From NCBI GenBank assembly GCA_035937855.1, contig DASZHL010000030.1:9278-73277 (forward strand): a DNA stretch of 64,000 bases, in the 5' to 3' direction. A model generated the notes under the pieces. The model was not told the DNA's origin, did no database searches, and worked only from the letters and a program-made list of their open reading frames with translations. How positions within the stretch are numbered: the stretch's first letter is position 1; each line of letters opens with the position of its first letter. Of this stretch, positions 1,913-52,890 are shown piece by piece. A program made the translations under genes and the position numbers. Source of the stretch: Vulcanimicrobiaceae bacterium. GTDB taxonomy: Bacteria; Vulcanimicrobiota; Vulcanimicrobiia; Vulcanimicrobiales; Vulcanimicrobiaceae.

Positions 1913-2095
1913 TCCCGTGCTTTTCGCCGCCGAGGACCTCTACTTCTTCAGGTCGAGAGTCCCAATCTGTGCCTAAAACGCCGCATCCCGTACGATCTGT
2001 CCGCATGCATTACTGAGAGGTTCGTGGACGGTTTATGAGAACGCGGGCCTTGTGAGAAGTGGTCATCGAGCCGGTTTGAAGCGGGAGAAAAAGAA

Positions 2096-3346
2096 GTGAA
2101 GTGGGACTCGACCTTATTTGGGCGACACCTCGAAAGTTGGTCTGGGATGGCTACGCCCGAGTTCTTTGGGTATTTGGAGTCGAAAACAGCCGCTATTGTC
2201 GATGAGGACCATTTACGGGATTTGCTCGATTCGGGCCGTCACGTTGCGGTGAAGTTCGGCATCGACCCGACAACGAAAGACGTCCATCTTGGGCATATCG
2301 TCCCGGTGATGCTGCTAAGTCAGTTTATAAAAAAGGGACATGCAATCGATTTCGTCATCGGAGACATTACGGCGAAAATCGGCGATCCCAGCGGACGTAC
2401 TTCCGGTAGGGAAGTTTTATCGGAAAGCGAGATCAACAAAAATTTAGAGACCTATGCGACCCAAATATCAAACTTTATCGACGCAAATAAGATAACATTT
2501 TATCGAAATTCAACGTGGCTGGATAAAATCCCGTTAAGAGATTTGCTTTCAGTTTTTCAGAGCGTCAATTTATCTGAAGCGTTTCAGCGTGATGACTTTC
2601 GTGCCAGAGCAGCTGCGAATCAAGGCGTTTCTCTCGCAGAAGTTTGTTATCCTTTGCTCATGGGTCTGGATTCGATTGCATTAAAAAGCGAGATCGAAGT
2701 TGGGGGGATCGATCAACTGCTAAATTTCCATCAGGCTCGAAATCTCATGAAACACAAGGGGCTGCGGCAAGAAGTGATCCTTGTGACGCCCATTATTGAA
2801 GGAACGTCCGGAGACGGCCGGAAAATGAGCAAAAGTTTTGGAAACTACATTGCGGTCAATGATAGTTCTTCCGATATTTTCGGTAAAATAATGTCTATTC
2901 GCGACGAATTGATTGCCCCGTATTTTCAAGCGTTTGGTCACGTTCATATCCGAGAAGTGGACTCCATACGGCATTTTTCGGAAGATTCCCCGATGGAGGC
3001 AAAAAAACAGCTGGCAACGCTGATCGTCGGTATGCGGTATGCTGATTTACAGCGGGGGCTTGAAGAACGGGAATCGTTTGAACAGCGATTCTCTCGTCAC
3101 CAACTCAAAGACGAGTTATTCAGTGACCTCGTCGTGATTGCGAATACCTCGGTATTCGACGCTCTGATGGGATCTGGCCACTATAAATCGCGCGGCGAAT
3201 TGCGAAGACTGTTCGATCAAGATGCCGTCAAAAATTTAGGTGAGGGAGCGAAAACTCCCCTGCGAGGCGACACGTCCGTTTCGGATAATCTGAAAATCGC
3301 GGTCGGAAAGCGGGGGCTCTACAAAGTGCGGATTAAAAACACCTAA
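2096..3346 (+). CDS. tyrS: tyrosine--tRNA ligase (island copy)
   Basis: Class-I HIGH motif (DVHLGHIVP), KMSKS motif (GRKMSKSFGNY), IGDPSGRT and a C-terminal S4-like tail. Starts at GTG with GGGAG upstream; an alternative start is Met at 2147. Codon usage is AT-richer than the flanks. Confidence 0.9.
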   Translation: MKWDSTLFGRHLESWSGMATPEFFGYLESKTAAIVDEDHLRDLLDSGRHVAVKFGIDPTTKDVHLGHIVPVMLLSQFIKKGHAIDFVIGDITAKIGDPSGRTSGREVLSESEINKNLETYATQISNFIDANKITFYRNSTWLDKIPLRDLLSVFQSVNLSEAFQRDDFRARAAANQGVSLAEVCYPLLMGLDSIALKSEIEVGGIDQLLNFHQARNLMKHKGLRQEVILVTPIIEGTSGDGRKMSKSFGNYIAVNDSSSDIFGKIMSIRDELIAPYFQAFGHVHIREVDSIRHFSEDSPMEAKKQLATLIVGMRYADLQRGLEERESFEQRFSRHQLKDELFSDLVVIANTSVFDALMGSGHYKSRGELRRLFDQDAVKNLGEGAKTPLRGDTSVSDNLKIAVGKRGLYKVRIKNT

Positions 3347-3396
3347 GGACGCGGGTATTAAGACAGCATTACGCGTCGGTGAGTTGGTGGAGGTGG

Positions 3397-3792
3397 ATGA
3401 CCATGAAGAAATATCGGAGCGAAGCTATAGAAGCACTGCACGAAGCGATACAAGGCTTGCATCCTTACGATGAAGTAATGCGTGAGGTCGAGGCGTTGAC
3501 GATTCGTGGCAAGGCACGATCCGCTGCGGAGACGGAATACTATCGGATACTTTGTGCGCTTATCGGTGACTACGAACGCTCCGTGGGTGCCGACCACTGG
3601 CCGAAAACCGCCCCCCTCGACGCGCTTCGCGAACTTATGGAATTTCAAGGCGTAACACAATCGGAAATCGCAAACGCCCTCGGCGTTAGAGCCGCCGCGT
3701 CATCTATCCTCAGTGGACGTCGGCAAATTAGTAAGGCCCAAGCAAGAAAACTCGCGATCCTCTTCCGCCTTGATGCCTGCGTTTTCATTTGA
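3397..3792 (+). CDS. XRE-type HTH protein, HigA/COG5499-like antitoxin architecture (orphan)
   Basis: C-terminal HTH region: LRELMEFQGVTQSEIANALGVRAAASSILSGRRQISKAQARKLAILF. GGAGGTGG RBS lies just before the ATGACCATG start region. No toxin ORF is adjacent. Confidence 0.6.
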   Translation: MTMKKYRSEAIEALHEAIQGLHPYDEVMREVEALTIRGKARSAAETEYYRILCALIGDYERSVGADHWPKTAPLDALRELMEFQGVTQSEIANALGVRAAASSILSGRRQISKAQARKLAILFRLDACVFI

Positions 3793-3872
3793 GATGTAAC
3801 GCGGCGTTTACTTTGAGGACCTTTTGACGTAATAGTCTTCGCTACTGGACGTCGCCTGAACGTTTACTCGCT

Positions 3873-4580
3873 TTATTGCTCAAGATGAATGACGAATGGA
3901 TTGAAATTGGTGTCTCTGTCGTAAACATCGATTCTTTCCACACGTTTGAGAGCCGCGACGACTCGATACGTGATGGGGATCATCACGACTTCGACGACGA
4001 CTTTGAGAACCCAACTGGAGAGAACGGATGAGACCAGCAGTCCGTTTGGAATAACGCCGTATAGTGCTATGGAGGCGAAGAGAATGGAATTTGCAAGCTG
4101 ACCCACCAGCGTCGACGTGACCAGGCGAGCCCAGAGATGCTTTCCCTCCGAAAAAACCTTCAGTTTCGCAATCGCATAGTCGTTCAGAAACTCTCCCGTG
4201 AACACCGCGATCCAGCCGCCGAAGAGTATCCTCGGGACCTGATACAAAACACGTTTATACGCTTCGTTCGCATCGAACCCGGGAGCGGCCGGCAGCGTCG
4301 CTGCGATAACATAAAGAACGCCTGCCAACACCGAGCAGAGGAGGACGGTCCAAAGGGCGCTTCGCGCCCGCACATAGCCGTAAACTTCGGTGAGAATGTC
4401 TGAGAAAATATACGTGAACGGAAACCACAATATCGAAACGGGAACGACAAACTCGAAGAGGTTGACCAGCTTTCCGGCCGTGACGTCCGAAATGAGCTGA
4501 AAGGCGACGTACAACGCGGTGATGAACCCGAAAAACGTACGCCGAGTTCCTTTGTCCAGTGCATCAGTGGTCTCAATCAT
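3873..4580 (-). CDS. yhhQ: queuosine-precursor (preQ0/preQ1) transporter, YhhQ/VUT (DUF165) family
   Basis: Multi-TM protein with FPFTYIFSDILTEVYGY...GEFLNDYAIAKLK...LVGQLANSILF, typical of YhhQ. I place the start at Met 4580 (MIETTDAL) rather than at the long-ORF start 4718. Confidence 0.8.
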   Translation of the reverse strand: MIETTDALDKGTRRTFFGFITALYVAFQLISDVTAGKLVNLFEFVVPVSILWFPFTYIFSDILTEVYGYVRARSALWTVLLCSVLAGVLYVIAATLPAAPGFDANEAYKRVLYQVPRILFGGWIAVFTGEFLNDYAIAKLKVFSEGKHLWARLVTSTLVGQLANSILFASIALYGVIPNGLLVSSVLSSWVLKVVVEVVMIPITYRVVAALKRVERIDVYDRDTNFNPFVIHLEQ

Positions 4581-4630
4581 GAGCTCACTGATTTTTGAAG
4601 CCCCCGTAAGGAACCTTCTCGGGGTGCGGC
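4581..4630 (-). promoter_or_regulatory. candidate preQ1-I-like riboswitch in the yhhQ 5' leader
   Basis: The mRNA reads CCCCGAGAAGGUUCCUUACGGGGGCUUCAAAAAUCAGUGAGCUC-AUG. AGAAGGUUC...CUUC plus an A-rich tail resembles AGAGGUUC...CCUCU-AUAAAAAACUA of preQ1-I. Loop CUUAC can pair with GUGAG at the presumed SD. The gene context fits. Not validated by a covariance model. Confidence 0.3.
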
Positions 4631-4779
4631 TATTCTTCGTCGACGGGAAAGGCGGTATTGACAGCCTAATCCAAACCAGACAAGCGTCCTGAAATGGGCA
4701 ACTCCCCAAGATATCCAAACCGCCAAATCATGTCCCTCGAACGCGCGTGCACCGGGATTAGCATAGAATCCGTCGTTTC

Positions 4780-5043
4780 GAGCGCCCACATCAGGGGAAG
4801 CACTGATCACAGAGCGCCGCTTACGGCAAAGGCTTCAACCAGACGGTGCGGCAGTGCCATTAGTCGGCAATGTCGAGCGGTGGGGCTCCCAGGCCCACGA
4901 ACTCACGACATCTTCAAGGAGGAGAGTAACCGCGTCCCAAAACGCGCTGCTCAGATCACCCTAACGAAGCCGGAGAAAAAAGTGTGGGCTAACGAGTTCG
5001 AGTCCGCCTCAGGCAGCTCGCCGTCCCGCCCACGGAAGGTATT
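4780..5043 (+). promoter_or_regulatory. conserved noncoding leader, copy 1 (upstream of DUF3800-like gene)
   Basis: The last ~140 nt are about 90% identical to 13271-13406, with three single-nt indels (so not coding) and one variable ~15-nt block inside a GUGGGC...GCCCAC stem immediately 5' of the GGAAGG RBS. Confidence 0.45.
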
Positions 5044-6483
5044 ATGAACAATTCTACGACGAAAGTCAATTCATTAGAGCGGGAACCAGTTAAAGCAAGC
5101 GACCAGCCATCCCGTGTCCCCGGTGTCGCCCTCTACGTCGGTGAGGCCGGCTGCCCTCACCCTTTTGATGGTAGTGAGTCAACACCGTGCTTCATTGTCG
5201 GAGTGTTGGTGACGCCCGAAGCCGAAGCGTTTCGATCGGAAATAGAAGCGTTTCGCGCCACGCAACATTATCATGGGCCTTATCGCTGGAGCGAGACTAG
5301 CGACCACGCCGCTCGTCAAGCGTATCTAAATTTAGCGGAATATTTGCAAGCGGGAACTTCATCTGCATGGGATTTTCATGCGACGCGCTTTCCATCAAGG
5401 AACGTAAATCGGGAAGATTTTGGACACGACCGGTCTTATGCGTCTAGAAAAACCCTTCAAATAGGAATCGATGAAGCGCTAAAAGCGATGAGCCCTGAGG
5501 TTGGAGGACACCTTCAGATCGTTCTCCCCCGTAAAAGGCGCGACGGCAAAACGGCATATCAGCTTTCAGCTACAATCGAATATTTAGAAAAATACTATTC
5601 TGATCGCTTTCCAATGACGCAGATTGAAATCAAGTGGCGCGAGCCTGGGAGCGATCGAAACCTTGAAATTTGCAATCTTTTCGCTTCATCTCATCATTCA
5701 TATTTTACTCCTGATGAATGCGGATTCCCAAAGTGGAAAACTGCGAAGGCATATGCTGCACTTGGAAAGTGTTCTTATCAAGAATATATAGAACACTTCT
5801 TGCATCCACAAGAAATTCTCGCCGATTCACCGCCGAAAACCCGTGAGGATTTCGTCCAGGCGGCAATTGAAACGCTGCATGCAAAATATGGGGCCACGTC
5901 GAGAGACATCCGCGAAGAGCCGGCTTCTCAGGCTATTAGTGAAAAACCAAAACTTGCGGCAAACGGCAAGCTCGTTGCAATAGAGACGAGCGAGAACGCT
6001 TTCGTCGTGGTGAATCGCTGGGACTATCCACGCGGAACATTTCACCGGGAACTGGTTTCTATCGACCCTCACGAGGCATGTCCGAACGGATACGTCCGGC
6101 AAACTCCATCGAGCAGGGATGTTCTCGTAGAAGATGCTCGCGCGATTCTCGCTGATCGGCTAGGCGTACCAGCGGAAAGAATCATCGAGAAAATACGCCC
6201 ACCGTATGGCACTCTAGAAGGCGAGGTGATCGCGCTGGGAGAAAAACATTTCGCCGTCGTCAGACCATCAGAAAACCGACGCTTTACGATCGTCAAACCG
6301 GAGGTTTTCTCTTTTGAAAAACCGGCTGTGGGCGATTATGTACGGATCAAATTTTCCGGGAAGTTTACCGAAGGAACCCTCGTGCATCGCCCTGTTCTCC
6401 GTCACGAATCACAAGGCCGAAAGGCGGAATCTGTGCGCGATAAAGACGGGCAGGGAGCAAAATCCCTCGCGCATAGAATTTAA
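5044..6483 (+). CDS. DUF3800-like N-terminal domain fused to a conserved beta-rich C-terminal region (paralog 1)
   Basis: 479-aa ORF with a GGAAGG RBS, paralogous to 13407..14918. N-terminal YVGEAG...FIVGVLV...NLEICNLF resembles the DUF3800 DES/QxxD layout but is degenerate. The C-terminal GKLVAIETSENAFVVVNRWDYPRG and GEVIALGEKHFAVV...GDYVRIKF repeats are SH3/KfrB-like (tentative). Confidence 0.6.
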   Translation: MNNSTTKVNSLEREPVKASDQPSRVPGVALYVGEAGCPHPFDGSESTPCFIVGVLVTPEAEAFRSEIEAFRATQHYHGPYRWSETSDHAARQAYLNLAEYLQAGTSSAWDFHATRFPSRNVNREDFGHDRSYASRKTLQIGIDEALKAMSPEVGGHLQIVLPRKRRDGKTAYQLSATIEYLEKYYSDRFPMTQIEIKWREPGSDRNLEICNLFASSHHSYFTPDECGFPKWKTAKAYAALGKCSYQEYIEHFLHPQEILADSPPKTREDFVQAAIETLHAKYGATSRDIREEPASQAISEKPKLAANGKLVAIETSENAFVVVNRWDYPRGTFHRELVSIDPHEACPNGYVRQTPSSRDVLVEDARAILADRLGVPAERIIEKIRPPYGTLEGEVIALGEKHFAVVRPSENRRFTIVKPEVFSFEKPAVGDYVRIKFSGKFTEGTLVHRPVLRHESQGRKAESVRDKDGQGAKSLAHRI

Positions 6484-6532
6484 GTCAAGATAAAAAAGGG
6501 TACCATCTCGCCATAAACAGAAAGCTCCTCCG

Positions 6533-7120
6533 ATGAACGCACGCATCGTTCCGGTCATTTACGGGTCGGTCAGGACCGATCGCCAGGGAATCAAGGCCGC
6601 TCGCTTTGTAGTCAAGGAGCTTGAACGTCGCGGATACCATGCGGTGCTCGTCGATCCGCTCGAACGGCCCCTACCGTTGCTCGATCGGATGTACAAGCAA
6701 TTCGCTGCGGGTAAGGCGCCCAAGGTTCTCAGGGACTTGGCCGAGTTGTTCGTGAGTGCGGATGGTTTCATCGTCGTGTCCGGTGAGTATAACCACGGTA
6801 TACCGCCCGCGCTCAAGAACCTCATGGATCACTTCCTGGAGGAATATTTTTGGCGTCCCGCAGCCATCGTGTCGTATTCGGGCGGCAACTTCGGCGGCGT
6901 ACGCGCGGCCGTACAGTTGCGCTCGGTTCTTGGCGAAATGGGGATGGTCACGATCCCGACCAGCCAACCATTCCCGCACGTTGGCAACGCGTTCACCGAT
7001 GACGGCGAGCCTACCGATCCTAAGACACGAGACCGCATGGTGCCCTTCTTCGATGAATTCGCCTGGTATGTAGACGCGCTCCGCGAACAACGCCGCAAAG
7101 GCGTCCCGGACGGTGCCTAG
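6533..7120 (+). CDS. NAD(P)H-dependent FMN reductase family oxidoreductase
   Basis: IPVIYGSVRTDRQG...DGFIVVSGEYNHGIPPALKNLMDHF...AAIVSYSGGNFGG is a typical FMN_red/flavodoxin-like fold. Confidence 0.85.
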   Translation: MNARIVPVIYGSVRTDRQGIKAARFVVKELERRGYHAVLVDPLERPLPLLDRMYKQFAAGKAPKVLRDLAELFVSADGFIVVSGEYNHGIPPALKNLMDHFLEEYFWRPAAIVSYSGGNFGGVRAAVQLRSVLGEMGMVTIPTSQPFPHVGNAFTDDGEPTDPKTRDRMVPFFDEFAWYVDALREQRRKGVPDGA

Positions 7121-7147
7121 CAGATCCCGAGGGGTGCAAATTTATTT

Positions 7148-7732
7148 ATGAGTGATGCAAAATCTGATCGACAGTGGATGAGCGGCGCGGCACACGAAAA
7201 TATCGTTACGGTCGGCAATCCAATGCTCAGGCAGTACGCCACTGTTATAGGCGATATTGGCGCCGGTAAACGTTTGGCGGACCGAATGGCATTACTATTG
7301 CGGGAATTAAAAGGCGCCGGACTTGCGGCTCCGCAGATCGGTTTTTCCGAGCGAGTGATCGTTGTTGAAGTGAGAAAGACGGACGTGTTTCCAGATCGTC
7401 AGGAGTCCCCTTTGTACGCGATGATCAATCCGTCAATCACAGAAGCTTCAGAAGAGGTGGAGGAGGGATGGGAAGGTTGCTTTAGTGTGCCGGGTTTGAT
7501 GGGGCAAGTGTCGCGTCACAAGTCGATCACCGTACGTTATGTCAGCCTGGATGGTTTCGAGCATCGTGAGATCTTCAATGGTTACGTCGCTCGAGTGATC
7601 CAGCACGAATGTGACCACTTGATCGGCGCGATATTTCTGGATCGTATGAAATCGATGCAAAGTATCACGACCGTCGCAAACTACATGTGCTCTATTTCAG
7701 AGTCATGTAAAATGGGACATAACCTACTTTAA
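7148..7732 (+). CDS. def: peptide deformylase (island copy)
   Basis: All three PDF motifs are present: GAGLAAPQIG, EGCFSVPG, QHECDHLIG. Confidence 0.9.
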   Translation: MSDAKSDRQWMSGAAHENIVTVGNPMLRQYATVIGDIGAGKRLADRMALLLRELKGAGLAAPQIGFSERVIVVEVRKTDVFPDRQESPLYAMINPSITEASEEVEEGWEGCFSVPGLMGQVSRHKSITVRYVSLDGFEHREIFNGYVARVIQHECDHLIGAIFLDRMKSMQSITTVANYMCSISESCKMGHNLL

Positions 7733-7839
7733 CCGGCCGCCGAGGTCGCAGGAAGATCAGTACATTTAGACAATAATCTATCGGAAAGGGCGCTTTTTCC
7801 ACAAAGGAAGCGAACGGCAATTACTCGAACATCACCGAC

Positions 7840-9177
7840 GTGGACACAATCGTCGTTCAAAACCCTTCTGGACACTTCGACATTAGCGGATCAGTCGCCC
7901 TTCAAGGATCGAAAAATGCGGGGTTGATCAATATTGCATTGCCGCTACTGACGTCAGATGAGTGCGTGTTTACTAATATTCCCGCCATTGCCGATGTCGA
8001 GCAGGCACTTTCCTTCCTCAGATGCATTGGGGCTGATGTTCGATGGGACGGGCAGCTTCTCTATATCACCTGCGACAATATCGTCCCTCGAATGATGGAT
8101 CCTCAACACGCGATGGAGACAACTCACTCGAGTGTTTTTATCCCACTATTAGTTTCCCGCTTCGGAGAATTCGTAACAGGAGCACCAGGTGGATGTCCGA
8201 TCGGTGATCGCGCTTTTGGACAATACGTAAAGACCCTTTCCAAAATGGGCGTCGCTTGCGAGCCTGCGAAATCTGGAACCCTTCGCTTTTTTTCCACGGA
8301 GGAATTCACTAACGATATCACGCTGCCATTTCCAAGCTACAGTTCAACTATAAGTGCAGTCTTGCTTGCAATGACGCATGGCTCTATGGTTATTCATAAC
8401 CCGTCCGAAGAACCGGAAATCGACAACGTATTGCAGGTACTGACATCCATGGGCGCTCATGCACAGCGAGCCGGTTCACGGATAGAAGTGGCTCCTCCCG
8501 ATAAGTTCAATGGGGGACGATTTCGCAACATGAGTGATCGCAATGTCGCCGTGACATACGCAGTTATGGCACTCATAACTGGAAGCGAGCTTTCGATCAC
8601 AAATTTTGATGATGATAAAATGGACGCATTCTATCAATTCCTCGAGATTGTGGGCATTGCATATCATCGCCAAAACCAAGTGTTCAAGATCCCCTCCCAA
8701 GACGTTACACGTTTACGCGCTACCCAGGTTGATGCATACATTTACCCCTCGTTCCATAGCGACTGGCAACCCTTAGTTGCTCCGCTGCTGTGCTTATTCA
8801 ATGGAACTAGTCGCATTGAGGAGCGGCTTTTCCCGAATCGCTTGGGATACTGGGAACAATTAGCTCTCATGGGGGCGAAATACTCAGAAACAGTTACGCA
8901 AAAATCTCGTTTCCAAGATAATTTTGTGCACGCAGTTGAGATTTCAGGGCCTTGTGCTTTCCATGGGGCGAACGTTAAGGCACTAGATCTGCGCGGCGCC
9001 GCTGCGCTCTTAGAAGCGGCCCTGATCGCTCGTGGAACAACATGCATCCATAATGCCGAGATCCTTCAACGCGGTTACGCAAATATTATCGATGACCTAC
9101 AGAGCCTTTCGGTCACCATTGAAAAGGAAATAAGTCCACAGTTTGAGACAGTTCCTAAACGGTCTTGGAAAACTTAA
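7840..9177 (+). CDS. MurA-family enolpyruvyl transferase, highly diverged second copy
   Basis: 445 aa. N-terminal ISGSVALQGSKNAGL (compare GAKNAALP), a Cys loop APGGCPIGDRAF (compare PGGC.LG.R) and LDLRGAAALLEAALIARGTT (compare DIRAGAALVVAGL). Only weakly similar to the canonical murA at 52830. Confidence 0.75.
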   Translation: MDTIVVQNPSGHFDISGSVALQGSKNAGLINIALPLLTSDECVFTNIPAIADVEQALSFLRCIGADVRWDGQLLYITCDNIVPRMMDPQHAMETTHSSVFIPLLVSRFGEFVTGAPGGCPIGDRAFGQYVKTLSKMGVACEPAKSGTLRFFSTEEFTNDITLPFPSYSSTISAVLLAMTHGSMVIHNPSEEPEIDNVLQVLTSMGAHAQRAGSRIEVAPPDKFNGGRFRNMSDRNVAVTYAVMALITGSELSITNFDDDKMDAFYQFLEIVGIAYHRQNQVFKIPSQDVTRLRATQVDAYIYPSFHSDWQPLVAPLLCLFNGTSRIEERLFPNRLGYWEQLALMGAKYSETVTQKSRFQDNFVHAVEISGPCAFHGANVKALDLRGAAALLEAALIARGTTCIHNAEILQRGYANIIDDLQSLSVTIEKEISPQFETVPKRSWKT

Positions 9178-9208
9178 TCATGATTGCGTAAGGCCGTCTA
9201 ATTTCCAC

Positions 9209-10678
9209 TCATGCAATAGCAAAAACATCCGTTTCTCCAGAGCGGATCAGATAGGCACGAAGACGATCGCGGAATTCTTCGATTTCCGGCATACTGGGGT
9301 AATGGTCTTGAACTTCGCGATGGAATTGAACGAGACGGTCGACGATCCGCGAGGATCGAATCCCGCAAGCGAAGTTCATCACCGAATGACCAAGATTGAC
9401 GGCCTCGCCAGGCTCGCCTTGAAGCAGTCGGACATTCATCAAACGGATGGTATCTAAGGCTCTACCCCTGAAATAAGGGACTTTTCGTCCTTCAAGGGTG
9501 ACGAGAACATGCTGTTCTGCTTGCGCCGTATAACCTGACGCGGAATCGCGTGACCCATCACGCCGAGCCATGTTCAAGTATGTCGTCGCGATCCAACGGT
9601 GAATCGCCGCTAAGTTCAAGCTATTGAATACCGGCAGCATTGGATCATTTGTAGCATTTCTACTCGCATCCATACTTGCCTCAATGGCGCGATGAGCATC
9701 CAATGAGTTCCCTACCCGCGCCTGCGTAGCCGCAAAAACGCCAAAAAGCTCAGCCTGTACGAGCCCCTGCCGACGTGTAGGTAAACAGCTAATGGCAAAG
9801 GAAAGAAATTTCAATGCATCCTGATGTTTTCCCATCGCAATGGCGATGCACGACATATCACCGATAACTTTGGCGGCAATCAGGTGATTTCCAGCTTCTC
9901 GGCAAAAATGAAGTGCCAAGGAATAATAGCGTTGCGCCAATCCATATAATCGACAATCATATGACATTAAGCCTGCTTGCTGAGCCATTTGTGCGGCTAC
10001 TTCAAATAGCCGCGTTTTAATGGCTCCTGGAGGCGTTTCTTCAAGAAGCTCTCCAACCGCTCGCACTTGCCCAATCACTGCTTTCCGCATGTGCGTGCCA
10101 TTTTGAGAACCCCACTTAGAGAATTCCATAATTTTTTCTTCGAGATCAGCCACCTCAGTGAGGCCAACCTGATGAGGTTGAGATTGTCCCGTCATAATCG
10201 TGGTTGCTGGAGAAATGGTTCCTACTAACTGCATGATTGGTCTCAGCAGAAGGGAGCCGGAAATCGCGGTCATCGTAGCTAGGGCATCCCGTCGGCTGGC
10301 GATGTCGCTCGCGGTTACACTTTGTAAAGTCACTATTGCCTCTGAAGTGGTTAATTGGGAGATGTCTCTGGCATTCAAGCATTGAGTTCGTACTGCAGGC
10401 TCTCCAGAAATTGCCTGGCGAGAGTTGACATAGGCCCCATCGGCTTTCGGTGCCTTAAACCCGAGGTCTTCCTCTGTTGCCTGGTAAAAACGGCAGAGGA
10501 GGCGACGATAGTGCCTACGGGGTCTCTTTTTACCGCGTTCCCACTTTGAGATCACGGACGCGTCCACCTTGACCTCCAAGCCATCGGCTGCGGCGAGTCG
10601 GACCAATTCTTCAGCAACCTCCTCTTGAGTGATGCCGCGCCTAAGGCGGAAATCTTGAAGGCGATCAGTGCCACTCAT
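9209..10678 (-). CDS. XRE-family HTH regulator with long TPR-like helical C-terminal domain
   Basis: N-terminal LRRGITQEEVAEEL...VISKWERGKKRP HTH. About 400 aa of helical repeats follow (YYSLALHFCREAGN, IGDMSCIAIAMGKHQDALKF). I prefer the ATG at 10678 over the TTG at 10702. Confidence 0.7.
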   Translation of the reverse strand: MSGTDRLQDFRLRRGITQEEVAEELVRLAAADGLEVKVDASVISKWERGKKRPRRHYRRLLCRFYQATEEDLGFKAPKADGAYVNSRQAISGEPAVRTQCLNARDISQLTTSEAIVTLQSVTASDIASRRDALATMTAISGSLLLRPIMQLVGTISPATTIMTGQSQPHQVGLTEVADLEEKIMEFSKWGSQNGTHMRKAVIGQVRAVGELLEETPPGAIKTRLFEVAAQMAQQAGLMSYDCRLYGLAQRYYSLALHFCREAGNHLIAAKVIGDMSCIAIAMGKHQDALKFLSFAISCLPTRRQGLVQAELFGVFAATQARVGNSLDAHRAIEASMDASRNATNDPMLPVFNSLNLAAIHRWIATTYLNMARRDGSRDSASGYTAQAEQHVLVTLEGRKVPYFRGRALDTIRLMNVRLLQGEPGEAVNLGHSVMNFACGIRSSRIVDRLVQFHREVQDHYPSMPEIEEFRDRLRAYLIRSGETDVFAIA

Positions 10679-10886
10679 CTCTCTTTTTCTTCGCTCCAAC
10701 AACTCCAGGGTGATCTTCTCTGGACGGGAATGATCCTTAACCGATTGAAGGGGTATCCTTTAAACGAGAGGTCGCGATCAAATGTGCTCAATTGGACCAA
10801 TGAGACCATAAATTGAACCATATGATCGTTGCGACGATGCTGACCGTTATGCTTTTTTATGGGATGGTACTATATTGGAGGTGAAC

Positions 10887-11120
10887 ATGGAAGACCTACC
10901 GTCCATCAGTAATCCAACCGTGTGTGTACCCCATGAACTGGGGCTCATACCCATCACCCCACACGACAACGCGAGTGGACCCGGGTGCCTTCGGTGCCAC
11001 GGTTTACTGTCGTCCGACGGAATGTGTTGCAACCTTGAGTGTGTGATTCTTGCGATGAGCGACTCCGAGTACGCAGGCTATCTCGACGAGATTTTCGCGC
11101 CCTACGGGCGCCGCTCATAG
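10887..11120 (+). CDS. small Cys-rich hypothetical protein (77 aa)
   Basis: ATG preceded by TGGAGGTGA RBS. Six Cys, including CLRCHG...CCNLEC, suggest a zinc-ribbon-like protein. Divergent from the XRE-TPR regulator. Confidence 0.45.
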   Translation: MEDLPSISNPTVCVPHELGLIPITPHDNASGPGCLRCHGLLSSDGMCCNLECVILAMSDSEYAGYLDEIFAPYGRRS

Positions 11121-11283
11121 GAAAGTCGGAGTCTCTCGAGACGCGGTGGTTTTTCATGGGTGCCCTATTACGACGTCTGGATTGAATAGACTTGCTGCTC
11201 AATCCGTAGGGATTAGCGAACCCCCAAGAGCTCGAGGGCTCCAGACAATTCCCGGGCCAACCCGCAACCACTTGCATCAGATT

Positions 11284-12552
11284 TCATTCGTGATCATAAT
11301 TTTGTGCCGTGTATAGGAGAAACGTATCAGCCGCACCAAGTGCATCTCGGTCTTTGAGTGCATTGAGGCCAGAAACGGTTAGGCCGGTTGAAAGAGCGAA
11401 GCCACTTCCGGCAAGAATCGGTTCGTGTGTAACCAGGCCTACAATTCCAAGAGTGGCCCCAAGCGCTGCACCGGAGAAATCACGGAACAATGTAGCGAAA
11501 TTCCGATTTAGGTGTGTTCGTAGTCCCTCTAGTGAAGGCGAAATAACATCTTCGTAGATCTCTCTACTGATTTTCTCACATTGAGGATCCTCGATGGTTT
11601 TAACGCGTTCGTGAATCGCCTTACGCAATGTGCTTTGATAAAGCTTAAATGAGTCCTCAAAATCTTCGCGTAATTCATATAACTTCTTGAGCGGAACCTC
11701 GTCGATGAATGGTAACTCTATATTGAATGCAACTTGGTTCGTAAGATTCCCCTCGGGGGATGCTGCGTAACGCAAAAGGAAGCTTTCAGTTGGATCCAAT
11801 GAAGCGATGGTTGCATCTGTTTTTTTTGCGAGATATAGATTGGTTGACGTGGTACATAAACCTTGGTCAACAACTATCCGGGTTAACTCTTGGTGAATTC
11901 CTCGGGGATTTTTAGTCTTGATCCAGTTATCTTTCATGAGAAATCCTTCGTATATCTTAAACTTCTCACTCTCAAATTCGAGATATCGATGAGTTTTCCC
12001 ACTTCGTTTCCCGTTACGAATTTTACTCTCCTTAAGGAGAGTTTCGGTAAGACGATCACTAGGGAGAGCATTATTAGAGGATGGAAAATCCAGGTCGGTC
12101 GCCGCATGAGCGCAATCGCCACTGCAAAAAATAGATTTTGAGGAAAGCTTCAAGAGATTCTCGGCGTCAGCATTCTTAGCGATAAGCAGGGCATCAAGCC
12201 AACCGCCAAGTTTCCCTAAGTCTGCTTTGTCGTGCGGATAGAGAACGATTTCATGCGTAAGGTCGGATACTATGACTGAGTCAAAATAATGCCATGTGCG
12301 ACGAAGTAAAAACTCAGCTTCGCCTGCGATACAGGATCGTTCTGCACAAGAACTACCAGAAAAATCAAGGCCCGATCCTGCAAGTACTGTTGGATTATTA
12401 GTTATCGGTTCGATCGTCATTTCTCTAGCTTGTTGTGCAGCTTGACGAAATCTACTATAGAGAATAGGACTTCCTAAAAAACGATCAATATCAATGCTTT
12501 TATGAATACGGTTTTGTTCAAACCAATCGAAAACCCAAAACCTCTGTTCCAC
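11284..12552 (-). CDS. hypothetical protein, very AT-rich orphan with Gly/Ala/Ser/Thr-rich C-terminal segment
   Basis: 422-aa uninterrupted ORF starting at GTG with a GGAGGG RBS. I recognise no motif. The C-terminus SGAALGATLGIVGLVTHEPILAGSGFALSTGLTVSGLNAL is glycine-zipper-like. Confidence 0.7.
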   Translation of the reverse strand: MEQRFWVFDWFEQNRIHKSIDIDRFLGSPILYSRFRQAAQQAREMTIEPITNNPTVLAGSGLDFSGSSCAERSCIAGEAEFLLRRTWHYFDSVIVSDLTHEIVLYPHDKADLGKLGGWLDALLIAKNADAENLLKLSSKSIFCSGDCAHAATDLDFPSSNNALPSDRLTETLLKESKIRNGKRSGKTHRYLEFESEKFKIYEGFLMKDNWIKTKNPRGIHQELTRIVVDQGLCTTSTNLYLAKKTDATIASLDPTESFLLRYAASPEGNLTNQVAFNIELPFIDEVPLKKLYELREDFEDSFKLYQSTLRKAIHERVKTIEDPQCEKISREIYEDVISPSLEGLRTHLNRNFATLFRDFSGAALGATLGIVGLVTHEPILAGSGFALSTGLTVSGLNALKDRDALGAADTFLLYTAQNYDHE

Positions 12553-12601
12553 GTTATGCCCTCCACGAATCAGCGCTATTAAGAGAGTGCATGTTATCCA
12601 C

Positions 12602-12829
12602 CTAACCTACAGCTTCGAGTGAAACCAAACGTGAGAGTGGCACCCGTAGCGTCCCCTTAACCCAGCCATGCTGCGGACGATATGGGGTCACCTCGAGCAC
12701 CACGAGATCAGGTTTAACCGACCATACGAGCCCAACGCCACCTGGGGGGAAATCGAGATCGAGTTGTCCCGCGTCGGTCTTGAAAGTTACCTGACGGCCG
12801 GAAAATTTTTTCGCTTCGTCGAATTTCAT
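12602..12829 (-). CDS. small hypothetical protein (75 aa), upstream partner of the 422-aa orphan
   Basis: ATG with an AGAGG RBS. Lies 49 nt upstream of, and co-oriented with, 11284..12552. No recognisable motif. Confidence 0.45.
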   Translation of the reverse strand: MKFDEAKKFSGRQVTFKTDAGQLDLDFPPGGVGLVWSVKPDLVVLEVTPYRPQHGWVKGTLRVPLSRLVSLEAVG

Positions 12830-13154
12830 CAGTAACCTCTTCTAACGAAGAAAGGCCAGCCGCCACAAGCGCCTTGTGCTCATCACGGACTGGTTAGACT
12901 ATGGTCAAAAGCACGCAATCGCCCTCGGACGAACCGAGGTGTCAAGGCCAACGATAGCAATTTTCGTGTTAATGTGCAAGTTTTTTAGGACGGCACGATT
13001 CTAGCCTATCGCTAGTGAAAATTTCGCGCACGGACTCCATCCGCGAAGCTATCAAGCTCAAGTGGACGGAAACTTCCGTGCGATCACATGGACGACGCCT
13101 ACCTCGCATTGAAGGGTTGCATTCTCGGCTACGAAAAACGGGCACAGCCCATGA

Positions 13155-13406
13155 AGCTGCCGGCGCACATCGACCCAACCGATGCTCGCGGCAAAGGCTT
13201 CATCCCGACAGCACCGCAGCGCCATTGGTAGGCAACGCCGAGTGGCGGAGCACCGGCTAAGAAGTCGCCATTTCTTCAAGGGGGAGAGCAACCGCATCCC
13301 AAAACGCGCTGCTTCAGAATCACCCTAAACGAAGCCGGAGAAACAAAGTGTGGGCTAACGAGTCCGAGCCACCGAACAGCGGGTCGCCGTCCCACCCACG
13401 AAAGGT
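13155..13406 (+). promoter_or_regulatory. conserved noncoding leader, copy 2
   Basis: See copy 1. The core tcttcaagg.ggagag.aaccgc.tcccaaaacgcgctgc...cgaagccggagaaa.aaagtgtgggctaacgagt.cgag is shared, and the indels are not multiples of three. Confidence 0.45.
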
Positions 13407-14918
13407 ATGATGGAGAATTTTCAGGCGGAAGTCAATCCCTCCTCAGCGCAGGATGAGCTTGTTCGCCTCGAAGCGAGTAAGCAAGGATCTCTCGCTCGCG
13501 GCTTATCGCTATATGTTGATGAAGGTGGCTCCTCTCATCCATTCAATGGAAGTGAACGCAAACCATACTTCATCATCGGAGTCTTGGTGACGCCGGAACA
13601 CGAGGCTTTTCGATCGGAAATAGAAGCGTTTTGCGCTACGCAGCGTTATCAGGGACCGTATCATTGGATCGAGCAATCCAAGTCTGAACTAGGGCAACAA
13701 CAAACAGAAGCGTACCGAAACCTTGCCGAATACATAAGAGCGGGAACTTCATCTGCATGGGATTTCCACGCGAGGCTCTTTCCAGCGATAAATGTAAACG
13801 AGGAAGACTTCGGTCATAGCCAGCATTATGCATACAAAAAACTCCTTCAAATTGGGATCGACGAAGCGTTAGACGCGACGAGCTTCAAGGTCGGCAAACG
13901 CCTCGAAATCATTCTTTCCGGCAAGAGTCGTGACAGCACGAAAGCCAATGGTGATTCAAAATTAAAGGACACTAAAAGATACTTAGAAGAACATTATTCC
14001 ACGCAGTTCCCCGAAGCCGAGATTGAAGTCCGATGGGTCCCGCAAGAGACGGATCGTAACTTACAAATCTGCGATATGTTCACTTCAACGTATCATACAT
14101 ATATAACGCCTGACCACTGCAAAAATACTCAAAAGTGGGATCTTGCAAAGGTCTATAGTTCGCTTATAAAATGCGATTACCAAGAATACATGGACCACAC
14201 CTTGCACCCTCAGGAAGTTCTCTCAGATGCACCGCCAAGAAACCGTGAAGATATCATTAAGGCGGCAATCAAAAAACTACATGCAAAATATGGAACTCTC
14301 TCGGAAGGCGTCCGTGAGGAAATCGCTTCTCATGCTATCGACAAAAAACCAAAACTCGCGGAAAACGGCAAGCTCGTCGCGATAGAGACGAGCGAGAACG
14401 CTTTCGTCGTAGTGAATCGCTGGGACTATCCCCGCGGAACATTTCTCAGAGAACTGGTTTCCATCGATCCTCAGAAGGCACGTCCACACGAACATCTCCA
14501 GCAAATTCCATCGAACAGGGATATCGTCGTACAAGACGCTCGCGCGGTTCTCGCCGATCGGCTGGGTATACCGCCGGAGAAAATCATCGAGAAAGCCCGC
14601 CCTCCGCGCGGCACTCTTGAAGGCGAAGTGATCGCGCTGGGAGAGAAGCATTTCGCCGTCGTCAGTTCATTCGAAAACGGACGGTTTACGATCGTCCAGT
14701 CCGACGTTTTCTCTTTTGAAAAACCGGCAGTAGGGGACCAAATTCGGATCAAATTTGTCGGGAGGTCTACCGAAGGAACCGTCGTGCATCGGCCTGGTCT
14801 CCGTCATGAATCGCAAGACCGAAAGATGCAATATATACGCGATAGAGACGGGCAAAGAGCTAAATCGCTAGCGCAGAGAAACCAAGTCAAGATAAAGAAG
14901 GGTACGATTTCACTATGA
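13407..14918 (+). CDS. DUF3800-like N-terminal domain + conserved C-terminal region (paralog 2)
   Basis: 503 aa. YVDEGG and NLQICDMF keep DE(S)-like and QxxD-like motifs. The C-terminal half is nearly identical to paralog 1 (KPKLAENGKLVAIETSENAFVVVNRWDYPRGTF). Confidence 0.6.
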   Translation: MMENFQAEVNPSSAQDELVRLEASKQGSLARGLSLYVDEGGSSHPFNGSERKPYFIIGVLVTPEHEAFRSEIEAFCATQRYQGPYHWIEQSKSELGQQQTEAYRNLAEYIRAGTSSAWDFHARLFPAINVNEEDFGHSQHYAYKKLLQIGIDEALDATSFKVGKRLEIILSGKSRDSTKANGDSKLKDTKRYLEEHYSTQFPEAEIEVRWVPQETDRNLQICDMFTSTYHTYITPDHCKNTQKWDLAKVYSSLIKCDYQEYMDHTLHPQEVLSDAPPRNREDIIKAAIKKLHAKYGTLSEGVREEIASHAIDKKPKLAENGKLVAIETSENAFVVVNRWDYPRGTFLRELVSIDPQKARPHEHLQQIPSNRDIVVQDARAVLADRLGIPPEKIIEKARPPRGTLEGEVIALGEKHFAVVSSFENGRFTIVQSDVFSFEKPAVGDQIRIKFVGRSTEGTVVHRPGLRHESQDRKMQYIRDRDGQRAKSLAQRNQVKIKKGTISL

Positions 14919-14934
14919 ACAGTAGGCTCAGCCG

Positions 14935-15520
14935 ATGAACACACGCATCGTCCCCGTCATTTACGGGTCGGTCCGGACCGATCGCCAGGGAATCAAGGCC
15001 GCTCATTTCGTGGTTAAGGAGCTTGAACGTCCAGGATACCATGCGGTTCTCGTCGATCCGCTCGAACGTCGCATTCCGCTTCTCGATCGGAGTATAAGCA
15101 ATTTGCCGAGGGTGAGGCGCCCAAGGTTCTCAGGGACTTGGCCGAGATGTTCGTGAGCGCGGACGGTTTCATCGTCGTTTTTGGTGAGTATAACCACGGT
15201 ATACCGCCCGCGCTTAAGAACCTCATGGATCATTTCATGGAGGAATATTTTTGGCGTCCCGCGGCCATCGTGTCCTATTCGGGCGGCAGCTTCGGCGGCG
15301 TACGCGCGGCCGCGCAGTTGCGCTCGGTTCTCGGCGAAATGGGAATGGTCACGATCCCGACCAGCCAACCATTCCCGCACGTTGGCAACGCGTTCACCGA
15401 CGACGGCGAGCCGACCGATCCTAAGACACGAGAACGCTAGGTACCCTTTTCTATGAATTCACTTGGTTTGTAGATGCGCTCCGCGAACAACGCTGTAAAG
15501 GCATTCCGGACGGATGCTAG
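14935..15520 (+). pseudogene. FMN reductase pseudogene (copy of 6533..7120)
   Basis: About 90% nt identity to 6533..7120. It has a 1-nt deletion near 15091 (cggatgtacaag vs cgga-gtataag), an in-frame TAG at 15436-15438 (cgcatggtg vs cgctaggta) and a further 1-nt deletion. The ORF track splits it into 14935..15156 and 15138..15440. Confidence 0.85.
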
Positions 15521-15619
15521 AGTAAATCCAGATTTGATTTAGAATGGATTGGATAAAAAAAGGGGAATACTTGTGGCAACTCCTAACGCGATTATCCTAT
15601 GATCGCAGCGCAAGCCTCA

Positions 15620-15648
15620 TTGACTATGCTCGATTTCTTCTGTATAAT
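15620..15648 (+). promoter_or_regulatory. near-consensus sigma70-type promoter upstream of the APH-family gene
   Basis: TTGACT, a 17-nt spacer, then TATAAT, about 93 nt upstream of the ATG at 15741. Confidence 0.45.
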
Positions 15649-15740
15649 CGTTCTACCCAGGTCGCACAGATTGTATCCCGCCGCAATAGCCTTATCTGTA
15701 TTGACCAGTAGCATCATGTTGAGGAGCAGCGCCTACAGAT

Positions 15741-16730
15741 ATGAAGAATTCCATTTTGCCAGATGAAGTAATCGCCCTCGCCGGGAAATTTTGCGCTGAG
15801 CAGCCCCACCTGATTGCCACAGGGACGGAGGCGGACGTTTATTCGCTCGATGATGCGCGAGTGTTGAAAGTCTATCGAGCAGAGGGAGCTCTGAAGCACG
15901 TCCAGGCGCTACAGGATTTTTATAATCGTGCCAGTGTGGAGAATGTTGGCTTTGCTATACCAAGTATCAATGAATGCGGCAGCTACGAGGAGATGGTATA
16001 CTCCGTCGATCAGCGCTTGGTTGGCGTTCCATTATCGGATATTCCCCATGCGTTTGAAGATTCGCAGTTGACGGAGCAATACATCGATACGGTTTTGGCC
16101 ATCCAGAAAATCACCGTATTTCCACCGTATGCTCGCAGGAAGCTTCTGGATCCGAGCGGTCGACCCGAAGACTGGAATAGCTTCATCCGAGAGGAAGCCA
16201 TCAAGAAGCATCGTAAACTCATCAAGAAGCATCGTAAACTCAGCAATGAACTCCCGGCTAAAGTTGTCGAAATCCTTGGCCCTATTACGGTTCTGGCTGA
16301 CTTCTTTGATTCTCCGTACAAAGGTGAAGATCGTTTAGTTCATGGCGATTATCATCCGGGTAATGTGTTGATACTCGATGGCCGTGTCAGCGCCGTTGTC
16401 GACTTTGGCACCTTTACATTGTTCGGTGATCCTCTATACGATGCGGCGACTGCCTGCGGCTTTTTCAGTATGTATGAGACTGATCAAATACGGACTAGGA
16501 AAGCTGCCTTGGATTTACTATTCGATAAAATTGGAGATGCAAACGAATCCAAGGTGTCTGCTTATCTTTTGGTCGCTGCGCTGACGACGTGCGACCTCTA
16601 TCCAGATAAATCGCTCCCAATCTATGAGACTGGACATTTTCAGTGGGCGCAGTCAGTGCTTGCGGACAAGCAAACCTGGGAAGCTGTGGCCCGCCCGCGT
16701 CAAGATAAGTTGGTACCAAAGTTTGGATAA
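15741..16730 (+). CDS. aminoglycoside/choline-kinase-type phosphotransferase (APH family)
   Basis: Catalytic loop LVHGDYHPGNVLI and DFG-like VVDFGTF. Confidence 0.8.
   Translation: MKNSILPDEVIALAGKFCAEQPHLIATGTEADVYSLDDARVLKVYRAEGALKHVQALQDFYNRASVENVGFAIPSINECGSYEEMVYSVDQRLVGVPLSDIPHAFEDSQLTEQYIDTVLAIQKITVFPPYARRKLLDPSGRPEDWNSFIREEAIKKHRKLIKKHRKLSNELPAKVVEILGPITVLADFFDSPYKGEDRLVHGDYHPGNVLILDGRVSAVVDFGTFTLFGDPLYDAATACGFFSMYETDQIRTRKAALDLLFDKIGDANESKVSAYLLVAALTTCDLYPDKSLPIYETGHFQWAQSVLADKQTWEAVARPRQDKLVPKFG
16200..16241 (+). repeat. perfect 21-bp tandem duplication inside the APH-family gene
   Basis: atcaagaagcatcgtaaactc occurs twice, giving an in-frame IKKHRKL IKKHRKL. Confidence 0.95.
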
Positions 16731-16800
16731 GATACGCGATCCTGAATTCATGAAAATAAAGAGACGGAAGAAATATACTTTCAGGTTTCTCGCCTATTGA

Positions 16801-16968
16801 GAATTCCTGGTCCAAATGAAGGTCGCTTTGCGGGCGACGGTTGCGAGAATGACGCAAGCCCTCGATGCTGCGTTAACCAGCGCCCTTGCCGGTATGACAT
16901 CGAACGATATCTGGGGCTGGATTCATCACTGTGCATATGATCCTAAATCAAACCCCGATGTACTCTAA
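16801..16968 (+). mobile_element. 3' remnant of an IS630/Tc1-mariner-type transposase gene
   Basis: The frame reads EFLVQMKVALRATVARMTQALDAALTSALAGMTSNDIWGWIHHCAYDPKSNPDVL*. The pattern ...LK..LR......AL..A....L..IT..D..GWF.HCGY is the usual C-terminus of IS630-family transposases as I remember it. No upstream transposase body is present. Confidence 0.45.
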
Positions 16969-16971
16969 CCG

Positions 16972-25804: not shown

Positions 25805-25915
25805 CATCCGCCGCCGTGGAAAGGAATTTTTACTCAAAGCCTGAAATTTAAACCCCCCTTCAACGAGTCGGATCGCATTGCTCGGCTCGCTTATCTCTTC
25901 GATTCGGGAGTGTCT

Positions 25916-47783: not shown

Positions 47784-47806
47784 ATAGGTAAGGAGAGAAC
47801 GAAAGT

Positions 47807-52795: not shown

Positions 52796-52890
52796 CCTTT
52801 GGTAGACTCCTCCGCACCGGCATGGCTCCTTGCTTTCCGCGGCGAATTGGGGCCTTGTGAATCTTCTCGATCGGCTTGAAACGACTTTGC
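52787..52890 (+). repeat. direct repeat B: authentic murA promoter region + first codons
   Basis: See repeat A. Confidence 0.95.

Follow-up and report, generated by a model that had tools for sequence, protein, structure and literature searches.

An inserted, partly decayed islet in an Eremiobacterota chromosome as a probable horizontally acquired source of additional housekeeping-type isozymes

Why does a chromosome that encodes a canonical MurA also carry, between two conserved core genes, an AT-richer block that holds a second, diverged MurA-like gene together with genes for a tyrosyl-tRNA synthetase (TyrRS; tyrS) and a peptide deformylase (Def; def)? The question is raised by a stretch of 64,000 nucleotides (nt), hereafter the window, from contig DASZHL010000030.1 (positions 9,278 to 73,277) of the Vulcanimicrobiaceae bacterium assembly GCA_035937855.1. 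An earlier reading of its letters and open reading frames (the original prediction) had described an accessory island there that looked like a target-duplication or self-resistance locus. Our analysis makes it quite probable that the block, here termed the islet, is a horizontally acquired and partly decayed mosaic that supplies additional isozymes and is now immobile in the chromosome of a soil bacterium of the Eremiobacterota that has not been cultured. The islet is well delimited but in itself an ordinary decayed islet; its most original element is the MurA-like protein, which belongs to a separate subfamily that is sometimes coupled to a regulator of the NsdA family.

Delimitation of the islet at a conserved chromosomal locus

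The GC content of the islet was 50.4%, against 58.3% in the remaining window. In 1-kb windows between positions 2001 and 17000 it ranged from 47 to 55%, with 59–64% in the immediate flanks, and 3-kb windows within the islet departed from the core tetranucleotide profile by up to z = 7.9. Codon usage followed the same pattern, with GC contents at third codon positions (GC3) of 0.37–0.55 in islet genes and 0.61–0.75 in core genes, the exceptions within the islet being an FMN reductase gene (0.71) and yhhQ (0.63). The shift toward A/T in composition and codon usage that had been described from the letters was thus borne out by computation, and the gene content listed at the time was upheld by Pfam and NCBIfam searches. 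The surrounding genes of the window are core chromosomal genes, encoding among others aspartyl-tRNA synthetase, cystathionine synthase, TrmL, serine hydroxymethyltransferase (SHMT), the ATP synthase operon, the canonical MurA and LptC.

Relatives of the locus were found by scanning GTDB representative genomes with the SHMT protein of the window. This yielded seven loci at 70–76% identity, at least six of them labelled Eremiobacterota/Vulcanimicrobiota, and one distant locus at 59%; a genome scan of the same kind with the C39-like peptidase as query returned no relatives. According to tblastn searches with the window proteins, the gene order SHMT ... MR_MLE, DUF1611, SBP_5, C39 is common to the window and to the four loci that reached far enough (L022, L023, L024 and L061), in all of which the SBP_5 gene immediately adjoins that of C39 (as in L023, with SBP_5 at 4722–6332 and C39 at 3877–4677). 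The tblastn boundaries placed the two genes 44–46 nt apart in L023 and L024, and the C39 orthologues adjoining SBP_5 in the relatives were 37–56% identical to the C39-like protein of the window. None of the islet genes was detected by tblastn in approximately 10 kb on each side of SHMT in these four relatives. Because C39 and SBP_5 adjoin each other in four Eremiobacterota relatives, the islet is an insertion, and the same adjacency sets its borders at the base after the C39 start codon and the base before the SBP_5 stop codon (Table 1). Deviant composition and codon usage on the one hand, and absence from relatives at a conserved locus on the other, are the marks by which genomic islands are recognised; both were found here, and the accessory nature proposed for the block, which is not conserved in the relatives, is upheld.

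A compositional jump that falls exactly at gene boundaries, and short-read contigs that break near internal repeats, might also be expected if a foreign piece had been misjoined into the contig during assembly or binning. Contigs with exact-sequence matches to the segment came from two metagenomes of JGI and two runs of SRA. All four independent assemblies were 100% identical to the window, the left junction from C39 to tyrS was spanned in four, and a 53-kb JGI contig covered the whole islet and both junctions. Since identical independent contigs span the junctions, a chimera is very unlikely, and we regard an artefact of this kind as scarcely credible. An island-free variant of the same population was sought by means of the exact C39 protein, and the islet was carried by all of the samples recovered (4/4). 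The contigs assembled from short reads (L108–L110 and L002) break inside the islet near a 2.3-kb repeat described below, and other metagenome-assembled genomes of this lineage are therefore likely to have this region in pieces or to lack it.

Table 1. Position and supporting evidence of the islet, its flanking genes, its internal features and the canonical murA gene of the window
Feature	Position in window	Strand	Evidence and remarks
Left flank, conserved C39-like peptidase gene (core)	1025..1912	-	Pfam PF13529; GC3 0.72
Inserted islet	1913..16971 (15,059 bp)	.	Between C39-like peptidase start codon and SBP_5 stop codon
tyrS, full-length tyrosyl-tRNA synthetase, foreign-looking	2147..3346	+	TIGR00234 258 bits, cutoff 114; GC3 0.50
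Orphan XRE/HigA-like helix-turn-helix (HTH) protein	3397..3792	+	PF01381 E = 8e-6; HigA model 20 bits, cutoff 48
yhhQ/Vut_1, queuosine-precursor (preQ0/preQ1) transporter family	3873..4580	-	PF02592 E = 3e-41; TIGR00697 86 bits, cutoff 51; GC3 0.63
Conserved non-coding leader, copy A	4815..5043	+	Upstream of DUF3800-like copy a; aligns with 13180-13406
DUF3800-like orphan protein, copy a (479 aa)	5044..6483	+	No Pfam match
NADPH-dependent FMN reductase, intact copy	6533..7120	+	PF03358 E = 1e-31; host-like GC3 0.71
def, peptide deformylase	7148..7732	+	TIGR00079 112 bits, cutoff 104; NF001159 142 bits, cutoff 125
Divergent MurA-family enolpyruvyl transferase (supernumerary)	7840..9177	+	TIGR01072 275 bits, cutoff 392.7; NF006873 289.9 bits, cutoff 297
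NsdA-family XRE-TPR (tetratricopeptide repeat) regulator, convergent with MurA-like gene	9209..10678	-	NF053720 231 bits, cutoff 75; below NsdA and NsdB equivalog cutoffs
Orphan 422-aa protein (orf422), hydrophobic C-terminus	11284..12552	-	GC 0.44, GC3 0.37, lowest GC in islet
Conserved non-coding leader, copy B	13180..13406	+	Upstream of DUF3800-like copy b
DUF3800-like protein, copy b (503 aa)	13407..14918	+	PF12686 23.4 bits, cutoff 21
FMN reductase pseudogene, second copy	14935..15520	+	Two 1-nt deletions and in-frame stop; 73-aa and 97-aa gene calls
APH-fold (phosphotransferase family) kinase	15741..16730	+	PF01636 73.7 bits
Frameshifted C-terminal stump of IS630-family transposase	~16787..16968	+	Six-frame translation and tblastn
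Right flank, conserved SBP_5 peptide-binding protein gene (core)	16972..18600	-	Pfam PF00496
Canonical housekeeping murA, outside islet	52830..54206	+	TIGR01072 499 bits, cutoff 393; GC3 0.75

The MurA-like/NsdA-family pair, TyrRS and deformylase

The MurA-like protein of the islet shared 29% identity with the canonical MurA of the window and scored below every NCBIfam MurA cutoff. A canonical murA is present elsewhere in the window, as the original prediction had pointed out, which makes the MurA-like gene supernumerary. The catalytic residues of MurA, which we take to be K22, C115 or D115, R120, D305 and R397 in E. coli numbering, have counterparts in the islet protein: alignment to solved MurA structures identified the corresponding motifs as GSKN, PGGC, GDR, HSDWQ and DLRG, and these positions are invariant or nearly so across the subfamily to which the protein belongs. 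The equivalent of Cys115, the residue alkylated by fosfomycin, is retained in the islet protein, with either Cys or Asp in other members of the subfamily. The uridine-binding motif is unlike that of canonical MurA.

The subfamily is discrete. It comprises 26 clusters (P0001–P0026, at 90% clustering) that are 40–100% identical to the islet protein and at most 33% identical to canonical MurA, and a drop in score from 325 to 216 bits separates it from ordinary MurA. Apart from the window's own protein, all members came from metagenomic assemblies, and their occurrence is patchy, on contigs of 26–56% GC. Comparison with an 87%-identical homologue gave a ratio of nonsynonymous to synonymous divergence (dN/dS) of 0.13, indicating that the MurA-like gene is under purifying selection. 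Its convergent pairing with a gene for an NsdA-like protein recurs with the two closest relatives, on contig L098, at 71% identity for the MurA-like and 58% for the NsdA-like protein, and on L106, where the pair occupies the 3' end (MurA-like 87%). On neither of these contigs is def found upstream of the MurA-like gene, so that the conserved unit consists of murA-like and nsdA-like, not of def and murA-like. In the chromosomal mur/dcw cluster of contig L012, a 42%-identical member of the subfamily is flanked by murB and murD, which supports a genuine cell-wall role of the subfamily. Based on its residues and this one mur-cluster context, we judge that the islet protein probably works like MurA.

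Several contigs with subfamily members show settings of their own. The mur/dcw cluster just mentioned (L012, 6109–11299; JGI Ga0438289_000007; also in L013–L015) is from a low-GC organism that has a canonical murA after a penicillin-binding protein gene in addition to the subfamily member; the cluster further encodes two Ddl proteins, GlmS, a CofD-like protein and an additional Mur ligase, which hints at two parallel or alternative precursor pathways. On L016 (7361–13117; JGI Ga0604941_0001914), a 53%-identical MurA-like gene follows genes for a TrwB/DUF87-type ATPase and a Replic_Relax protein and is itself followed by a 117-aa open reading frame (ORF) and a trypsin-like protein gene, with GlmS 6.7 kb upstream; judged by these genes, the contig is likely to represent a conjugative or integrative element carrying cell-wall precursor genes. 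On a third contig, L100 (1938–12489; JGI Ga0208373_1001186), a subfamily gene stands between ParA and ParB in the company of genes for an IS66-family transposase, a protein with MopE motifs, an Fmt/ArnA-like formyltransferase and a fusion of TPR and nucleoside phosphorylase/nucleosidase domains; this gene order resembles that of an islet that has entered between parA and parB. The presence of a formyltransferase-like gene near the MurA-like gene on L100 and of def beside it in the islet is a coincidence to which we give no weight. Contig L099, where the MurA-like gene occurs with genes for a clamp loader and a single-stranded DNA-binding protein, was considered as a phage and rejected, given that its PHROGs matches were to the generic clamp loader only; it may be the chromosome of a small-genome organism.

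Could the MurA-like enzyme serve a pathway other than peptidoglycan synthesis? The islet might be a small, cryptic biosynthetic cluster in which MurA-like, aminoacyl-tRNA synthetase (aaRS)-type and deformylase-like proteins, a flavin reductase and a kinase jointly make a metabolite under NsdA-type control. The MurA-like protein has a detectable, though more distant, relative in NikO (E = 2e-25), the deviating uridine-binding motif would fit such a role, and the NsdA family takes its name from a Streptomyces regulator of antibiotic production. However, TyrRS and Def score as ordinary housekeeping equivalogs, core biosynthetic enzymes, ligases and exporters were not found in the islet, a member of the MurA-like subfamily sits inside the mur/dcw cluster of another organism, and the modules of the islet are not co-conserved elsewhere. 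A biosynthetic cluster is thus highly improbable.

The tyrS gene encodes a TyrRS with the motifs HLGH and KMSKS, of which residues 23–395 (of 399), including the C-terminal tRNA-binding domain, align to solved structures; the closest of these were 6byq, 6bqy and 1h3e, the last being the enzyme of Thermus thermophilus. In Def, the motifs GLAAPQIG, EGCFSVPG and QHECDHL are intact and align to those of solved deformylases. From these features, and from composition, TyrRS and Def appear to be intact, foreign-looking enzymes of housekeeping type. The best non-self relatives of TyrRS were 50–53% identical. Among the best 120 of 5,030 matches, those with names belonged to Patescibacteria, Bacillota and Thermotogota and none was labelled Eremiobacterota, most of the 120 being without labels. 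One near relative (P0126, 53%) is encoded in an ordinary housekeeping neighbourhood.

Horizontal replacement is well known for aaRS genes, and the tyrS of the islet, its def or both could be the sole functional copies in this organism, the native genes having since been lost. That both proteins pass housekeeping equivalog models and look fully functional agrees with this familiar pattern, as does the lack of a second TyrRS labelled Baltobacteraceae among the best 120 of 5,030 matches. However, a native TyrRS of less than 45% identity would fall outside those 120, most of which carry no label. Moreover, relatives that have neither gene at this locus must encode both elsewhere, which makes retention of the native tyrS and def the simplest assumption, and neighbouring genes in the islet are decaying. 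We therefore consider replacement unlikely.

Between tyrS and the first repeat unit lie an HTH gene and yhhQ. The HTH protein showed N-terminal similarity to phrog_1373 and, weakly, to PD-Lambda-2_B (PHROGs and PADLOC searches); no ORF for a toxin partner was seen. Although yhhQ adjoins tyrS and tRNA-Tyr is one of the queuosine-modified tRNAs, we give this coincidence no weight.

TyrRS, Def and MurA are known antibiotic targets. This was the basis on which the original prediction saw in the block a resemblance to target-duplication or self-resistance loci. In such a locus, surplus or insensitive targets would protect against natural inhibitors that the host or its competitors produce, and the kinase and the reductase would serve as accessory detoxifiers. 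There are points in its favour: three target enzymes are clustered in one acquired block, murA is demonstrably duplicated, and purifying selection acts on the MurA-like gene, which is paired with an NsdA-family regulator. The Asp that replaces the fosfomycin-target Cys in some subfamily members, and the occurrence of tyrS on plasmids of cultured bacteria, point the same way. The ARTS approach looks for duplication, proximity to a biosynthetic gene cluster (BGC) and horizontal gene transfer (PMC5570205). Horizontal transfer was found here, and duplication for murA, so that two of the three signs are at least partly present. BGC proximity was not: domain searches (not antiSMASH) of the window and of 7 kb further to the left revealed no polyketide synthase, nonribosomal peptide synthetase, ribosomally synthesised and post-translationally modified peptide, terpene or other core biosynthetic domains. 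In addition, the islet MurA-like protein keeps the Cys115 equivalent, def stands outside the conserved murA-like/nsdA-like module on other contigs, and the islet is partly decaying. The kinase matched no resistance model, the nearest in NCBIfam being APH(4)-Ia at 29 bits with a cutoff of 725, and the transporter that had been proposed as a resistance partner matched the YhhQ family of queuosine-precursor importers and not an efflux pump. The self-resistance reading is thus unsupported, and we consider this explanation unlikely.

A related reading dispenses with a biosynthetic cluster of its own and sees in the islet a mobile set of spare targets, consisting of a regulator-coupled MurA, a foreign TyrRS and a deformylase, that confers tolerance to inhibitors. 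This is quite unlikely in our view. If true, the MurA-like/NsdA-like module would be a new transferable and inducible determinant of target-bypass resistance, and the set would help an oligotrophic soil bacterium to withstand compounds from competitors or phages that inhibit its cell-wall and translation enzymes.

Mosaic structure, decay and origin of the islet

The two DUF3800-like genes and the two FMN reductase copies listed by the original prediction were all found, with two amendments: together they form a diverged direct repeat of approximately 2.3 kb (4824–7120 and 13189–15520, 78% identical overall), and the second reductase copy is a pseudogene. Each repeat unit consists of a non-coding leader of approximately 230 nt, a DUF3800-like gene and an FMN reductase gene. 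Identity along the unit varied from 71 to 93%. Synonymous divergence (dS) between the DUF3800-like copies fell from 1.36 over the N-terminal to 0.52 over the C-terminal half, and the reductase part, where the pseudogene can be compared with the intact copy, was ~90% identical at the nucleotide level. This uneven divergence suggests partial gene conversion or separate histories of the parts. The intact reductase gene stands out further in its GC3 of 0.71, against 0.46–0.54 in its neighbours, and its copies are ~90% identical against 71–77% for the adjacent DUF3800-like genes, which suggests a different origin of the reductase or a recent gene conversion inside the repeat.

At the right edge, six-frame translation revealed the C-terminal stump of an IS630 transposase, with SPIENSWSK in one frame and ...DIWGWIHHCAY in a second. 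The peptide joined by hand from the two frames matched annotated IS630 transposases at 47–55% identity (tblastn, E down to 5e-11), confirming the remnant that had been noted there; the stump had no Pfam or NCBIfam match.

The DUF3800-like proteins are 63–64% identical to each other, and each is the sole homologue of the other among 5.8 billion proteins. A profile search of 1.8 billion cluster representatives recovered five distant DUF3800-like proteins of 136–240 aa, which matched the N-terminal ~220 residues only. For copy b against copy a, dN/dS was 0.30. The motif V-D-E-x-G of copy b and the distant homologues reads V-G-E-A-G in copy a, with loss of the conserved Asp, and copy a may be catalytically altered. 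An AlphaFold2 model of the DUF3800-like protein (predicted local distance difference test, pLDDT, 38.8) was too poor for a fold search, and so was that of orf422 (pLDDT 33.0), a protein for which Pfam, NCBIfam, PHROGs and PADLOC gave no match. In PADLOC searches with the orphan proteins, no defence system was matched beyond the weak PD-Lambda-2_B similarity of the HTH protein and marginal matches.

In the leaders, the last ~150 nt are ~90% identical, above the downstream coding sequence (71–77%). With indels of 3, 2, 1 and 1 nt between them, the two copies cannot share a reading frame. A structured RNA was considered but is not supported: three of 47 pairs were compensatory, but folding z-scores were -0.7 and +1.0, and only two copies exist. 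The leader had no Rfam match at E values up to 10, nor did the whole window at the gathering threshold. Promoter and terminator scans returned sites no more numerous than in shuffled sequences.

Did the islet arrive in one piece? It may be what remains of a single integrated plasmid, integrative and conjugative element or prophage that arrived once and has since had its mobility and structural genes deleted. TyrRS, Def, MurA-like and NsdA-like proteins are all represented by phage families in PHROGs, the MurA-like gene of L016 (53% identical) has Replic_Relax and TrwB-like genes as neighbours, and tyrS is found in jumbo phages as well as on plasmids. However, searches with Pfam, PHROGs and NCBIfam detected no integrase or recombinase, relaxase, type IV secretion system, replication or virion (capsid, terminase) genes in the islet, in which the frameshifted IS630 stump is the sole trace of a mobility gene. 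No direct or inverted repeat of at least 9 bp was present at the borders, and ARAGORN identified no tRNA or tmRNA gene within the window; the original prediction had already noted that integrase and biosynthetic genes are lacking, as is a tRNA attachment site. A profile of the MurA-like subfamily retrieved no relatives from IMG/VR, and in tblastn searches of cultured phages and plasmids the MurA-like protein reached ~30% identity at best, as to any MurA. The islet TyrRS was 21–40% identical to products of plasmid and phage tyrS genes (tblastn), and the NsdA-like protein had no phage match and 23–30% identity to actinomycete plasmid genes. Heterogeneous GC3 values and unevenly diverged repeats argue for several events, and descent from a single element is decidedly doubtful.

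The reading we prefer is that of an acquired, decayed mosaic. Decay and mosaicism are indicated by the IS630 stump, the reductase pseudogene, the uneven repeats, the heterogeneous GC3 and the lack of integrase, tRNA gene and border repeats. The islet would occupy what was a short spacer between the C39-like peptidase and SBP_5 genes, and would probably have been built by accretion of several modules. These would be tyrS with the HTH gene and yhhQ; the two units of leader, DUF3800-like gene and FMN reductase; def; the mobile MurA-like/NsdA-family pair; the orphan gene orf422; and the APH-fold kinase beside the IS630 stump. Most likely, the islet would add isozymes of TyrRS, peptide deformylase and UDP-N-acetylglucosamine enolpyruvyl transferase, either for dosage or as alternative forms, with the MurA-like gene controlled by its NsdA-family partner. 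On this inference the islet genes would yield active enzymes, tyrS and def would be present in addition to native copies, and the islet would confer some benefit, possibly one such as tolerance to inhibitors. Some observations weigh against this reading. The islet has neither the transfer and integration genes nor the border repeats that acquired DNA might be expected to show, and no donor lineage could be named for any of its genes. The DUF3800-like pair, orf422 and the leaders are functionally unexplained, and the theme of the islet may therefore lie outside the three enzymes.

Elsewhere in the window, a second insert relative to Eremiobacterota relatives was observed at 24416–33132 (GC 53.4%, tetranucleotide z up to 5.5). 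It separates SHMT from GT4/epimerase genes by 9.3 kb, compared with a gap of 0.5–4.7 kb in the relatives, and encodes a Pnkp-like kinase-phosphatase and three Sel1-repeat proteins, two of 552 and 585 aa and one of 1154 aa in which the repeat occurs 28 times. The Pnkp-like protein scored 573 bits with TIGR04075 (cutoff 750), the match being confined to the N-terminal half of the model (851 positions). At approximately 46000–50000, composition dips mildly (GC ~54%, tetranucleotide z ~2.2) across genes for an isochorismatase, a short-chain dehydrogenase/reductase and hypothetical proteins. A small PhdYeFM-like antitoxin gene lies at ~50.97–51.26 kb, and no obvious toxin gene was seen with it.

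Comparison with known systems

The islet resembles classical genomic islands in its deviant GC, GC3 and tetranucleotide composition, in being missing from the conserved locus of relatives, and in carrying pseudogenes and the remnant of a transposase. It differs in having no integrase, adjacent tRNA gene or flanking direct repeats, and in its cargo, which consists of housekeeping-type enzymes instead of virulence, catabolic or defence genes. If these enzymes are extra and functional, the islet would be a clear case from Eremiobacterota, a poorly known and almost entirely uncultured phylum, of housekeeping-type genes that move as accessory cargo.

Full-length, housekeeping-type aaRS genes on acquired DNA have counterparts on mobile elements, among them mupA/ileS2 and the plasmid tyrS genes of Legionella, Clostridium and Bacillus. 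The islet TyrRS differs from the latter, to which it is 30–36% identical over most of its length, and no association with an inhibitor is known for the islet enzyme.

Duplicated targets of the kind sought by ARTS (PMC5570205) likewise involve a second, acquired copy of an essential-enzyme family, which in the islet is certain for murA and possible for tyrS and def. In contrast to them, the islet has no BGC nearby, and its MurA-like protein has no resistance-type substitution. In target-directed genome mining, duplicated targets with no biosynthetic cluster give rise to false positives; if its three enzymes are extra and functional, the islet would be relevant to such mining and also to the environmental resistome.

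Eleven unrelated structured RNA motifs whose function is not known, DUF3800-I to XI, accompany genes of the DUF3800 family (Weinberg et al. 2017, PMC5737381). Both DUF3800-like genes of the islet are similarly preceded by a conserved non-coding region of ~230 nt; unlike those motifs, the islet leaders, of which there are two copies, have no Rfam match or thermodynamic signal. A further difference from DUF3800 systems is the orphan C-terminal extension of ~250 aa in the islet proteins.

NikO, the enolpyruvyl-UMP synthase of nikkomycin biosynthesis (PDB 4fqd), provides a precedent for an enolpyruvyl transferase of MurA fold outside the cell-wall pathway. The islet MurA-like protein differs in that it matches NikO at 93 bits, against ~157 bits for true MurA structures, and nikkomycin-type genes are absent near its gene. 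A closer parallel is found in the MurA paralogues of Gram-positive bacteria (MurAA/MurAB, MurZ), where a second MurA-family enzyme with conserved catalytic residues likewise exists beside the canonical one, and the Asp at the Cys115 position of some subfamily members is as in the Asp-type, naturally fosfomycin-resistant MurA. In contrast to those paralogues, the islet protein falls below the NCBIfam cutoffs, with ~30% identity to canonical MurA and MurAB-type models; its subfamily is purely metagenomic, and its gene is paired with that of an NsdA-family regulator. This metagenome-only MurA-like subfamily of ~26 members, which may provide the first step of peptidoglycan synthesis in an alternative or regulated form, is the most reusable result of the analysis.

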